DNA of 64,000 nt from Candidatus Zhuqueibacterota bacterium (GTDB lineage Bacteria; Zhuqueibacterota; Zhuqueibacteria; Zhuqueibacterales; Geothermadaptataceae). The notes under the pieces are model-generated. The model was not told where the DNA came from, ran no database searches, and saw nothing but the letters and a program-made list of their open reading frames with translations. The translations under genes were made by a program, and so were the position numbers. Shown here in pieces: positions 15,791 to 20,159 of the stretch. Position 1 is the first letter of the stretch. The number at the start of each line of letters is the position of its first letter. The stretch is from positions 20,820 through 84,819 of the forward strand of contig JAUZRQ010000091.1 of the NCBI GenBank assembly GCA_030950365.1, read 5' to 3'.

Positions 15791-16270
15791 TCAACTGAGC
15801 TGATCGATGATCAGATCCACCAGAGCAATCAGCACTTTGCGCACGCTCGTCGGATCGAACACATTGCAAAAAATGAACGAACCGTGCTTGTCAATGGGGA
15901 TGCCGAAATCAAAAGCGGATGGCAATACGGGTACGCGGCCCTCGGTGTGGCCGGCCACCACAACCACCGCATCATAGCGGCTGATGAGGGTATCGACTAG
16001 CTTCTGACATTTGCGGAAGGATTCAACATCTCCCCAGCGAAACAGCACCACGAAGCCAAGCAATTTGCTGGAAATCAAATCCCAGGAGATGGCGTTTTCA
16101 TCCTCGGCGAGAGAAATACCGTACAGATGCAACAGCAACTGATCATTGACGTGGAACTGACCAAAGGTGAGTCGATCGTTTTGCACTTCCACCGTATCGG
16201 CGATGGATTTGACAAACGCGCGCTCTTCTTCCGCATTTGCACCGACGATGGCAATCTCACCGATTCGCAT
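15791..16270 (-). CDS. Small GTPase-like protein lacking P-loop/G3/G4 signatures (pseudo-GTPase, MglA/CvnD-like layout)
   Basis: The secondary-structure-like pattern resembles small G domains, but the signatures are missing. IAIVGANAEEERAF stands where GxxxxGK[ST] is expected, HLYGISLAED where DxxG is expected, and VVVAGHTEG where NKxD is expected. ATG 16270 is preferred over GTG 16282 and has a GAGG RBS. Overlaps the upstream gene by 14 nt. Confidence 0.5.
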   Translation of the reverse strand: MRIGEIAIVGANAEEERAFVKSIADTVEVQNDRLTFGQFHVNDQLLLHLYGISLAEDENAISWDLISSKLLGFVVLFRWGDVESFRKCQKLVDTLISRYDAVVVVAGHTEGRVPVLPSAFDFGIPIDKHGSFIFCNVFDPTSVRKVLIALVDLIIDQLS

Positions 16271-17579: not shown

Positions 17580-20159
17580 TCAGGTGTCATTTTTTTCCTG
17601 CCAGCGTCTTAAATTTTGATCCGCCAGCATGGCCTGCAAGAACTGAAGCATGCTGGTAGAATCATCTAGATCTACACTCTGGATCAGATCGAGCTTATCC
17701 GCACCGATCAAATCGCGCACGGTTTCCACTGAAAAGTTGCGCACGCCTTTGGACTCCACAAGGGCGATGGCAAACGGCTTTTTGTACTTTTTCTTCAGCG
17801 CATTATATAGGTAACTGACGTAATCTAAATTCGCGCGCGAATTCGCCTCGATCAGCAATGCATAGCCGGCGAAGCCATCGGCCAGGCTATCGAGAAGCTG
17901 GGTGAACTGTTGTTCCATGGAAACGCCCACGACCACCAGATTCTGATCACCCACTTCGCGCTCGCCCACGCCCAGATATTCGAAAACTTTGCTCTGGAAC
18001 TTCTGAATCGGCGCGTTTTCCAATACGAAGTTAGAGAATTTTTCGATGTATTCGATTTTGGCGCCAATGAGCACGAACTTGGCCGGCGGCGCCAGTGCCG
18101 TCTTGGCCAGCTTTTCCAGCAACCGCTCCAGCCGCTTCGACATTTCCGGCTCGAGTTTGGCCCCTGTCGGTTCAACCGTTTCGCCGCCTGGTTTGAAAAT
18201 ATGTTCGATATCTGGGAAATGGCCGGTGTCCTGCGGAATTTTAGGCAACCCGCGCCTGGGCAGCGTTTTGATCGGCCGGAACACCTGCGGCGCAGGTTCT
18301 GTGTTTTCTTGTACCGGCCTACCTGAGGAAGACTGTTTTGCTCCCGGCGGCTCGGACGGCTCCGAGCTCTCCGCGACGGTCGGCCGCTTTGATTCTGTCT
18401 GCGGTGGCTCATTCAGAGTATCGTCCGGTTTCAGCGTATCCACATCGATTTCGAAATGCCGTGCCATGGTCTCTTCCAGCTCGGTCTTATCAGGTTCCAC
18501 GGCAAAATTCACCCCCAGGTCGGGATTCTCGGCATTGGAATCGGATGTCGGAAGGGTGGGAATCAGAATTTCATCCGTTGGCTCATCATTATCCTGGCCA
18601 GGAACATCAGGCTCACTGGAAACATCGCCAAGTTTAAATTTGGCGATGGCTTCCAATATATCCAGGTCCGGCTTGAACGCCTTCATGCTCAACGGCTCAG
18701 GATAGATAAGCTGGTCTTGCGTGCTGTCCGTAAACGCCGGCGCTTCCATGCCATTGGAATGCAGCACATACTCGGCTTGCGCCTCATCGCGAACCGGTTC
18801 ATCGGTGAGTGCACTGCCGGGCTCTTCCATCGTCACGGTGTTGCCGTTGGAACCGGCCGTGCTGGCCGAGACATCCAGTGGCTCGTTTTCGGCCGTCGGT
18901 TCCGGCACAGGGTCGGCTGCGGATATGACGTCCGATGTCGGTTTCGGATGAGCTGCTTCTTTGGTGGCGGCGTTTTTGTCGGCCTGTGCTATTTTTTCAC
19001 CGCTGGCGGCCGGCCGGGCTTCTACCTCAGACCTTTGGCTGAGAACGTCGAGGCTATTCATATCTATATCATGAATATTAAATACGGCAGACGAACCGTT
19101 CTCTGGCGGCGGTTGCTGGTCACTGGTATCCGCGTCAACCGACGCTTGTTCTATCGGTCTATCTTTGTTCACATCGGCGATTTTGATTTCCGCTGGCTTC
19201 GCTTCGGCTGCGCTCCCCGGCTTGATGAATCCCTGCTGGTACAGCTTTACCAGCCGCTCCAGGGTCTTCAGATCATCGTACGAACTCTCGTCGATGATCT
19301 GCATGATGTCCCGCTTGCCGTCGATCAGCGTGAGAAATTTGGCGGCCTCGACACTCAATTCTTTTTTGCTCAAAATCTTGCGGAAATTGTCGGTCAGCAC
19401 ACACGTGGTTTCCGGCGACGGCAGCATCTTAAACAGCTTTTCGCGTTCTTCGATCCGTTTGAACCCGTGCAGCAGCAGCCCGAGATTGCTCACCGAAATG
19501 GTATCCTCAACCTGCACCTCTTTGAAAGTCATAATAAAATGGCCCCGCCGCCAGGGCAGCATTTGATAAACCGCTTTTTCTGCCTTGAGCGTGCCGAGAG
19601 TCGCATGCACCACCGCGCCATTGCGGAAATAGATTTCGCCGTTTTTGTTGTTTTCGTTATAAACGCTCAACACGCCGGACTTACGCTCCACGCCGAAATT
19701 TTCGATGAGATCGGCAACGCTGTACTCTTCCAGCCGGCCAACCAGCTTGCGCGTCGGCTCCACCTCTTCGTTGCGCATGCGTTCCATGCGCCGAAGTATC
19801 ATTCGAATGCGTGCGATCACTTCTTTGACATGCAGCGGCTTGATCATGTAATCTTTCACGCCACCGCGCAGACTGCGCACACGGTCCTGAATCTCACGGC
19901 GATTGGTCAGAAACATGATGGGAATGGCGGCGGTGGTCGGCTCCTGCTTAATCCGCTCCAATAGCTGAAAGCCGTCCAGCTTCGGAAGGCTCACTTCGGA
20001 AAGGATGAGGTCCGGGCGCTCGGTATAGACTTTCTCCCAGGCTTCCTGGCCGTCCACCGCAGCGAGGACAGTAAACCCGGAAGATTCGAGACCCTCTCGC
20101 AGAATTTGCAGATTTTTCGGGTCTGCATCAACAACAAGAATGACAGGATTTTCCATCAT
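17580..20159 (-). CDS. Pseudo-receiver (Asp to Glu), PATAN/DUF4388, about 330-aa acidic/Pro-rich disordered linker, C-terminal pseudo-GTPase domain
   Basis: REC fold with PDLILSEVSLPKLDG (Glu at the acceptor position). DUF4388-like GRLEEYSVADLIENFGVERKSGVLSVYNENNKNGEIYFRNGAVVHA. A long low-complexity D/E/P/S/T region. The C-terminus KFVLIGAKIEYIEKF...LVVVGVSMEQQF...FAIALVESKG is paralogous in layout to the 15791-16270 product. Confidence 0.7.
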   Translation of the reverse strand: MMENPVILVVDADPKNLQILREGLESSGFTVLAAVDGQEAWEKVYTERPDLILSEVSLPKLDGFQLLERIKQEPTTAAIPIMFLTNRREIQDRVRSLRGGVKDYMIKPLHVKEVIARIRMILRRMERMRNEEVEPTRKLVGRLEEYSVADLIENFGVERKSGVLSVYNENNKNGEIYFRNGAVVHATLGTLKAEKAVYQMLPWRRGHFIMTFKEVQVEDTISVSNLGLLLHGFKRIEEREKLFKMLPSPETTCVLTDNFRKILSKKELSVEAAKFLTLIDGKRDIMQIIDESSYDDLKTLERLVKLYQQGFIKPGSAAEAKPAEIKIADVNKDRPIEQASVDADTSDQQPPPENGSSAVFNIHDIDMNSLDVLSQRSEVEARPAASGEKIAQADKNAATKEAAHPKPTSDVISAADPVPEPTAENEPLDVSASTAGSNGNTVTMEEPGSALTDEPVRDEAQAEYVLHSNGMEAPAFTDSTQDQLIYPEPLSMKAFKPDLDILEAIAKFKLGDVSSEPDVPGQDNDEPTDEILIPTLPTSDSNAENPDLGVNFAVEPDKTELEETMARHFEIDVDTLKPDDTLNEPPQTESKRPTVAESSEPSEPPGAKQSSSGRPVQENTEPAPQVFRPIKTLPRRGLPKIPQDTGHFPDIEHIFKPGGETVEPTGAKLEPEMSKRLERLLEKLAKTALAPPAKFVLIGAKIEYIEKFSNFVLENAPIQKFQSKVFEYLGVGEREVGDQNLVVVGVSMEQQFTQLLDSLADGFAGYALLIEANSRANLDYVSYLYNALKKKYKKPFAIALVESKGVRNFSVETVRDLIGADKLDLIQSVDLDDSTSMLQFLQAMLADQNLRRWQEKNDT

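Follow-up and report, generated by a model that had tools for sequence, protein, structure and literature searches.

PATAN (DUF4388) domains occur in the PatA-type regulators of cyanobacteria (PixG, PixE, PilG and PatA), where they are combined with a receiver (REC) and, as protein-binding outputs, make contact with PilB1 and PilC (bioRxiv 10.1101/2021.06.11.447907); orphan members act without phosphorylation. Genes for PATAN proteins are also known to neighbour mglA and mglB (PMC4316618), and the Myxococcus polarity module (MglA, MglB, RomR/RomX and FrzS) brings together a receiver with a Pro-rich disordered region (RomR), a pseudo-receiver scaffold (FrzS) and a small MglA-type G protein as partner. 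Switch domains lacking their switching residues are on record as well. In aspartate-less receivers (ALRs), the residue that most often takes the place of Asp is Glu, which can imitate phosphorylation; how bacterial pseudo-receivers work is, according to a review of 2025, 'a mystery' (PMC12632262). Eukaryotic class-I pseudoGTPases, among them CENP-M, p190RhoGAP pG1/pG2 and the AAGAB/Irc6p psGD, have a motif-less G fold and serve as protein-interaction modules (PMC12490416). Taken singly, none of these is new: there are pseudo-receivers, PATAN proteins, MglA-type GTPases and, chiefly in eukaryotes, pseudoGTPases. Here we describe an operon, p1–p2–p3, that combines pseudo-receivers, PATAN and GTPase-like domains, within a 64,000-nucleotide (nt) stretch of Candidatus Zhuqueibacterota bacterium (GenBank assembly GCA_030950365.1, contig JAUZRQ010000091.1, positions 20,820 to 84,819 of the forward strand; hereafter the window).

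The three genes are co-directional and tightly packed on the minus strand (Table 1), with 39 nt between p1 and p2, a 14-nt overlap between the p2 stop and p3, and 280 nt of gap upstream of p1; the open reading frame (ORF) listing places them exactly where a first-pass annotation of the same letters had done. That annotation had also recognized a receiver followed by PATAN in both large proteins, and both domains scored above their Pfam cutoffs: 87 bits (1e-24) in p1 and 47 bits (3e-12) in p2 for REC (PF00072, cutoff 30.2), and 60 bits (2e-16) and 71 bits (9e-20), respectively, for PATAN (PF14332, cutoff 25). NCBIfam matched the receiver portion alone in each. The two proteins are paralogous over residues 7–312 (27% identity, BLASTP E = 6e-40), a span that takes in REC, PATAN and the helical region of ~70 residues whose kinship had been proposed. 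Proteins 100% identical to p3 and to p1 (the latter P0025) are each annotated in a metagenome-assembled genome (MAG) of candidate division KSB1.

Receiver residues were read from alignments to CheY of nine p2 orthologues and 120 p1 homologues, the latter being those listed out of at least 224; all residue and motif counts for p1 refer to these 120. The homologue search used full-length p1 as the query, and its C-domain alone matched nothing in the word-indexed protein database, itself included. At the acceptor position (CheY D57), Glu stands in 118 p1 homologues and Asp in 1, Glu likewise in eight of the nine p2 orthologues, and Glu again in p1 and p2 of the window, as expected from the claim that both receivers lack the phospho-acceptor Asp. 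The Mg2+ acidic pair is incomplete in both receivers: D12 is retained in 119/120 p1 homologues, and D13 is replaced, always by G, A or S in the p1 family and by H, N or K in p2. T87, Y106 and K109 (CheY numbering) are each retained in 119/120 p1 homologues; the window copy of p2 has Ser at position 87 and Lys at 109, which vary in other p2 orthologues. We read both as true pseudo-receivers of the 'Glu' kind, because the acceptor Asp is replaced by a conserved Glu. They resemble other Glu-type pseudo-receivers (plant PRRs, fungal Rim15p and many bacterial ALRs), in which Asp has likewise given way to Glu with other receiver features retained, and differ from them in having PATAN and a pseudo-G domain as output, a combination not described in the reviews of ALRs consulted, PMC12632262 among them. 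To the first-pass annotation every classical switch of the module had appeared disabled. For the motifs lost this holds, whereas the receivers are not simply disabled: p1 retains Thr, Tyr and Lys, and as Glu is on record as a phosphomimetic, 'locked' perhaps describes them better.

The third component, present as the C-domain of p1 and as stand-alone p3, is a G-like domain. Although p3 has no match in Pfam or NCBIfam, an AlphaFold2 model from a 23-sequence alignment shows Ras topology (predicted local distance difference test (pLDDT) 83, predicted template modelling score (pTM) 0.83), and its best Foldseek matches in the PDB are Rheb, Rab and Ras (template modelling (TM) score ~0.7, probability 1.0, 10–19% identity). 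The p1 C-domain, modelled from 34 sequences at pLDDT 94.4 and pTM 0.90, is closest to Arf1, Arf4 and Arl1 (TM 0.65–0.72), with MglA-GDP among the matches. Overall, the G-domain fold of the two is matched at TM 0.65–0.77 with probability 1.0, which bears out the Ras/Arf/MglA-like fold suspected from the letters. The p1 C-domain and p3 families are, moreover, homologous to each other (hhalign 98.7%, E = 3e-16, 155 columns). Against PDB sequences, the p3 profile reaches Rab3 at E = 5e-5 and the p1 C-domain profile gives a weak Rab-like match in which GxxxxGKS and DTAGQ align to non-matching residues.

Motif scans and alignments agree with the first-pass annotation that G1, G3 and G4 are missing from both domains, and no hidden P-loop came to light: Walker A (GxxxxGK[ST]) occurs in 0/120 p1 homologues (last 230 residues) and 0/23 p3 homologues. 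In a family alignment (A4), the P-loop position reads GANAEEER in p3 and GAKIEYIE in the p1 C-domain, so that the Walker Lys and Ser/Thr positions hold Glu/Arg and Ile/Glu, respectively, in the window proteins. DxxGQ, TVPGQ or GTPGQ are absent from the G3 position (YGISL in p3, GVSME in the p1 C-domain), the G4 motif [NT]KxD is gone (AGHTE and ALVES), and p3 also lacks the switch-I insert. The families have conserved motifs of their own, namely KLVVIG, IIG(I/V)SMEQQF, GYxxLIEA, YLxYLxxxLK and PFxIAV in the p1 C-domain family, and family-specific invariant residues, MRIGE, HLYG and WD in p3 and GxSxExxF and YxxYL in the p1 C-domain; the most conserved residues of both sit in the interswitch, switch-II and alpha3 region. 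By sequence, p3 and the p1 C-domain resemble class-I pseudoGTPases, with a G fold, no G motifs and no nucleotide binding predicted. They differ from the eukaryotic examples in their independent origin from a bacterial MglA-like family, in the pseudo-receivers alongside, and in that non-binding is here a prediction from sequence.

That origin was traced with an exhaustive HMMER search, in which the p3 profile retrieved 448 cluster representatives at E ≤ 1e-3. The top ~55 are p3-like and P-loop-less, four of which (P0151, P0160, P0185 and P0188) keep GxxxxGK without the Ser/Thr; from E ~1e-17 to 1e-9 follow ordinary small GTPases with GPFNAGKT, GTPGQ and NKQD, labelled ATP_bind_1/Arf/Ras by Pfam. 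As a G3 signature, GTPGQ marks MglA-family groups 2–5, with CvnD of the actinobacterial conservon among them (PMC4316618). Alignment A4 lays out a series of P-loop decay, GPFNAGKT to GPRGAGKA to GPxxxxK to the GANAEEER of the window p3, and a (M)W(D/E)…LG motif after G3 common to p3 and real GTPases. By this homology the G-like domains descend from MglA/CvnD-type small GTPases, a kinship the first-pass annotation had put forward for searching. With groups 2–5 and CvnD they share the G fold, sequence homology, a Gly at the first G3 position and the (M)W(D/E)…LG motif, and that family has its own known genomic tie to PATAN proteins. They depart from it in lacking the P-loop Ser/Thr, GTPGQ and NKxD (in the window proteins the Lys as well) and, in p3, the switch-I insert; one copy is fused to REC–PATAN, and the locus has no Roadblock (MglB/CvnB) partner, no Roadblock domain being present in p1, p2, p3, the upstream genes X and Y (Table 1) or the gene tables of related loci.

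Less decayed relatives exist. P0270 of Ca. Edwardsbacteria (519 amino acids (aa), MEW6685633.1, L094:6405-7964) has the domain order and helical region of p1, that is REC, PATAN, helical region and G domain, and differs from p1 in its acceptor Asp, its GVHRTGKS and NKSD motifs, its short linker and its solo gene without p2 or p3 partners; it is apparently an active REC(Asp)–PATAN–GTPase. Intermediate between these are P0280/P0295 (508 aa), with receiver Glu, GSNTCGKT retained and G3 already GIALE. At locus L095 (8001-11214, JGI 3300041080), the next gene after that for P0295 is p2-like and encodes REC(Glu)–PATAN; gene calling divided it into two pieces of 183 and 175 aa, possibly through a frameshift. 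Then comes a 151-aa p3-like gene whose product matches the p3 profile at E = 3e-17 and carries GSRYSGKE. As judged from these motifs, L095 is a compact, looser version of the p1–p2–p3 triad in a distant lineage, with P-loops partly intact. A metagenome scan with P0270 returned generic receiver matches only and no p3-like or p1 C-domain-like ORFs. Remote matches of the p3 profile also include multidomain proteins, P0201 with TIR, nSTAND1 and a G domain and P0218 with TIR, HEAT and a G domain (Pfam); P0238, P0247, P0253, P0274 and P0275 share their N-terminal pattern (IFLSYSR/VFVSYSR), and such TIR plus G-domain architectures look defence-like.

The triad is conserved as a unit. Related loci were collected by three routes (p3 homologues, p1 homologues and a scan of species-representative genomes, the last giving 16 loci), and p1, p2 and p3 stand in this order in 25/25 of those with enough flank, down to p3 identities as low as 34%, so that the synteny on which the first-pass annotation had hung its proposal was found in every related locus examined. 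The full gene order is sigma-54 activator, X (~375 aa), Y (~86 aa), p1, p2, p3, cystathionine beta-synthase (CBS) and cystathionine gamma-lyase; the adjacent activator is absent in one related locus, and p3 is present in all. The organisms are mostly KSB1, Caldithrix and Calditrichaceae, together with a few MAGs labelled Deferribacteres, Cytophagia or unclassified. On this distribution the module is lineage-wide in KSB1 and Calditrichota, not unique to the window genome.

Across these loci, identity to the window is 59–71% for the p1 N-terminal region, 24–42% for the p1 C-domain and 34–55% for p3. Ratios of non-synonymous to synonymous substitution (Nei–Gojobori dN/dS, computed against the closest orthologue), which are rough because dS is saturated, are 0.024 for the p1 N-terminal region, 0.17 for the linker, 0.035 for the p1 pseudo-G domain and 0.05 each for p2 and p3, the last two similar to the 0.05 of the neighbouring CBS enzyme. 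By these ratios the pseudo-domains are clearly not decaying and are under strong purifying selection.

Between its conserved ends, p1 carries a linker with a net charge of -41, 12% Pro and 20% D+E, unconserved and of variable length among homologues. In its PATAN region, by contrast, column identity is 80–99% across 114 homologues, the same range as for all of residues 1–313. The last 87 residues of p2 have a net charge of +15, opposite in sign to the p1 linker, and both extremes had been picked out in the first-pass annotation. Within this tail an Arg-rich block, ERRRVERRRGERRRYDRRR (residues 358–376), is found in most of 25 aligned p2 orthologues and missing from several, whereas the terminal helix, ICLNRSELILIREKLL (residues 385–400), is universal in its LN(K/R)SELxxIREKL pattern. 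A PilZ-like or I-site-like reading of the tail was dropped, as the motifs misfit and no beta-barrel follows the tail. Neither Pfam nor NCBIfam matches the helical region after PATAN, and PDB sequences, searched with the single sequence and with a profile, gave nothing meaningful.

These proteins differ from PatA-type regulators in domain order (REC then PATAN here, PATAN then REC there), in the added helical region, long acidic linker and G-like domain, and in that no chemosensory or pilus genes adjoin the triad. Relative to the Myxococcus module, the triad's G domain is fused and P-loop-less, and no homologues of GTPase-activating proteins or guanine nucleotide exchange factors were detected. 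Like RomR-type regulators, p1 has a REC and a Pro-rich linker, but it ends in a G fold where they have the conserved, Glu-rich RomR-C region, and there is no coiled coil at its C-terminus. No RomX-like gene was recognized in the triad locus, where no search aimed at RomX was made.

The operon has transcription signals of its own. Its terminator, already placed in the first-pass annotation, is a real hairpin (folding free energy -20.2 kcal/mol, z = -3.9) with a T run. A promoter CTTGACA-N17-TATATT is kept upstream of p1 in most related loci, and in many a terminator hairpin precedes it; judged by these signals, p1–p2–p3 is therefore a transcription unit of its own, and probably a constitutively expressed one. 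No sigma-54 promoter was found upstream of p1, sigma-54-like counts across the window being at chance level, and an Rfam scan of 15300-22800 gave sub-threshold noise only. The p3 start is ATG at 16270 because all homologues begin MRIGE; GTG at 16282 was rejected, the resulting extension being unconserved. A 502-aa plus-strand ORF opposite p1 (18456-19964) is most likely mechanical, because the minus-strand frame holds the conserved domains and all homologues.

Table 1 Position in the window of the p1–p2–p3 operon, the parts of its proteins, its transcription signals and the genes upstream.
Feature	Position	Strand	Description	Basis
p1 gene	17580..20159	(-)	859 aa; pseudo-REC, PATAN, helical region, acidic linker, pseudo-G domain	ORF and Pfam
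p1 receiver, residues 7-119	19803..20141	(-)	Glu55 at phospho-acceptor position	Pfam and CheY alignment
p1 PATAN/DUF4388, residues 141-239	19443..19739	(-)		Pfam PF14332
p1 conserved helical region, residues 240-313	19221..19442	(-)	paralogous to p2 240-310	BLASTP, conservation profile
p1 acidic Pro-rich linker, residues 314-669 (356 aa)	18153..19220	(-)	presumed disordered	
p1 C-terminal pseudo-GTPase domain, residues 670-859	17583..18152	(-)		AlphaFold2, Foldseek, hhalign
p2 gene	16257..17540	(-)	427 aa; pseudo-REC (Glu55), PATAN, helical region, Arg-rich tail	ORF and Pfam
p2 Arg-rich segment and terminal helix, residues 358-400	16341..16469	(-)		alignment of 25 p2 orthologues
p3 gene	15791..16270	(-)	159 aa; stand-alone pseudo-GTPase	AlphaFold2, Foldseek, family alignment
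Intrinsic terminator closing operon	15735..15768	(-)	hairpin GGCCGCCACC…GGGGTGGCC then T run	
Sigma-70-type promoter of p1–p2–p3	20211..20239	(-)	TTGACT, 17 nt, TATTTT	consensus scan
Y	20440-20700	(-)	86 aa; invariant Cys14, His40, Cys44, Cys47	
X	20784-21914	(-)	376 aa, long invariant stretches	
Sigma-54 -24/-12 element	21962-21977	(-)	TGGTATAGATTTTGCT (TGGTAT-N5-TTGCT), 48 nt upstream of X start codon	
NtrC-type sigma-54 activator	22705-24081	(-)	very conserved (75-84% identity)	

We are confident of the architecture and descent set out above. To account for them, we propose that the operon derives from two ancient paralogous receiver–PATAN–small GTPase units, one still fused (p1) and one split into p2 and p3, which would be translationally coupled. 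With Glu in place of Asp the receivers could not be phosphorylated and would probably be held in one, possibly active-like, conformation; with P-loop, G3 and G4 lost (and, in p3, the switch-I insert), the G-like domains should neither bind nor hydrolyse GTP. Both classical switches being fixed, a stable and constitutive hetero-complex of p1, p2 and p3 is favoured. Here p2 would pair with p3 by the 'Rosetta-stone' logic of the p1 fusion, and the G-like domains and the pseudo-receivers would pair across the units; this fusion logic, with the published PATAN–mglA/mglB gene association (PMC4316618), suggests that PATAN and G-like parts cooperate. The conserved ex-switch faces and the highly conserved PATAN region would act as fixed binding surfaces and the long acidic linker as a flexible spacer. 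The complex could then serve a conserved envelope machine as its adaptor or as the factor that positions it, the best precedent, by analogy with cyanobacterial PATAN proteins, being a type-IV-pilus-type ATPase and platform, and control would come through abundance or partner binding instead of phosphorylation or a GTP cycle.

Taken whole, the reading of the operon as two old REC–PATAN–G units frozen into a non-switching adaptor complex seems to us evenly poised, and its latter part, the stable hetero-complex and its cellular target, is decidedly tentative. Several points weigh against it: the complex and its target are putative; the failure to bind nucleotide is predicted from sequence; the saturated dS blunts the measure of selection; some p3 relatives keep GxxxxGK, which leaves room for a non-canonical ligand; and no pilus or gliding genes adjoin the triad, the PilB/MshE-like ATPase 38 kb away being no evidence of a link.

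The room left for a ligand opens the first alternative, that the G-like domains are still controlled, bind nucleotide or another phosphate ligand non-canonically and cycle as an atypical MglA system. In its favour are the strong purifying selection and the fact that the switch-II-equivalent region is the best conserved; it can point to P0151, P0160, P0185 and P0188 with their GxxxxGK and to the p1 homologue at L095 with its GSNTCGKT, and deviations in G4 are already accepted within MglA groups 2 and 3 (PMC4316618). Yet Glu/Arg (p3) and Ile/Glu (p1 C-domain) occupy the Walker positions, with the loop filled by acidic residues; p3 is without the insert that carries the G2 Thr; G4 is missing, Walker A occurs in 0/143 clade members listed, and the locus offers no Roadblock/MglB-type partner, all of which makes a ligand switch rather unlikely. 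That the degenerate domains are functionless relics, and the REC–PATAN region alone matters, would suit the far better conservation of the 313 N-terminal residues of p1 (59–71% identity against 24–55% for the C-domain and p3); it is highly improbable, given pseudo-G dN/dS values of 0.035–0.05, on par with a housekeeping enzyme, the confident AlphaFold2 models, the family-specific invariant residues in p3 and the p1 C-domain, and p3 at every locus.

A different reading makes the module a regulator of transcription or nucleic acids, with a winged-helix-like helical region and a DNA- or RNA-binding p2 tail, perhaps working with X and Y, a putative sigma/anti-sigma pair. The tail is indeed strongly basic (+15) and mostly conserved, X, Y and the sigma-54 activator adjoin the triad in nearly all loci, Y bears a zinc anti-sigma motif and X a conserved sigma-54 promoter. 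We consider this quite unlikely nonetheless, since no helix-turn-helix profile of Pfam or NCBIfam matches the helical region, nor does any PDB sequence, p1–p3 have their own sigma-70-type promoter with a terminator that parts the triad from X–Y in many loci, and it is the terminal helix that is universal in p2, the Arg-rich block being missing in several orthologues. Experiments on PATAN proteins, too, favour protein–protein contacts over DNA binding (bioRxiv 10.1101/2021.06.11.447907).

Of the genes upstream, X matched nothing in Pfam, in NCBIfam or among PDB sequences. Y fits the HxxxCxxC zinc anti-sigma pattern with an additional upstream Cys, a Cys/His spacing like that of RsrA. Because Y shows this pattern, X may be a very divergent sigma-like partner of it. 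The sigma-54 element upstream of X is kept, adjoining the activator gene, in almost every related locus; a functional tie of X–Y to the triad would rest on adjacency. Downstream of p3, all related loci have the genes for CBS (14088-15458 (-) in the window) and gamma-lyase (12916-14070 (-)), including L008 with its different upstream genes; in the window the terminator lies between them and p3.

Elsewhere, the window holds a Pel-like exopolysaccharide cluster at 799-11722 (+), encoding a GH114 (PelA-like) protein, a GGDEF protein (possibly PelD-like), HEAT/TPR proteins, a DUF3492 glycosyltransferase (PelF-like), PelG and a TPR protein. The PilB/MshE-type ATPase (MshEN and T2SSE, 58013-59707), noteworthy given the binding of PATAN domains to PilB in cyanobacteria, belongs to a signalling cluster at 55301-63929 (-) that also encodes a SpoIIE phosphatase, an HDOD protein, two histidine kinases and three receiver proteins, of which one is REC–TackOD1. 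At 47176-51977 (-) are an ABC ATPase, an 888-aa ABC-2 membrane/DUF7088/ABC_transp_aux fusion and a DUF4340 protein, a layout that resembles the gliding-associated GldA/F/G transporter of Bacteroidota.

The first-pass annotation knew of no system of pseudo-receivers fused to pseudoGTPases, and in the literature searched we found neither the receiver–PATAN–GTPase fusion nor a P-loop-less version of it nor the triad described; what can be added is that the module is lineage-wide and has less decayed relatives in P0270 and L095. PseudoGTPases have been characterised almost wholly in eukaryotes, and here both types of pseudo-switch co-occur in one conserved operon. The intact P0270 of Ca. Edwardsbacteria, the half-decayed triad of L095 and the fully decayed triad of KSB1/Calditrichota form a natural series, which lets the role of a switch domain after switching stops be tested directly. 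The triad may also reveal a conserved PATAN partner outside cyanobacteria. The Caldithrix/Calditrichaceae lineage includes the cultured Caldithrix abyssi and, with related loci in Caldithrix/Calditrichaceae MAGs, experiments may be feasible. It is quite possible, if somewhat short of probable, that this operon specifies a 'double dead-switch' complex, the first to be described in a prokaryote: a phosphomimetic Glu would have frozen the receiver, and an acidic pocket without a P-loop the MglA-type G domain, and duplication into a fused and a split copy would have supplied the parts of one constitutive scaffold, lineage-wide and essential-looking. If true, it would show that bacteria, like eukaryotes, reuse small-GTPase folds as nucleotide-free interaction modules.

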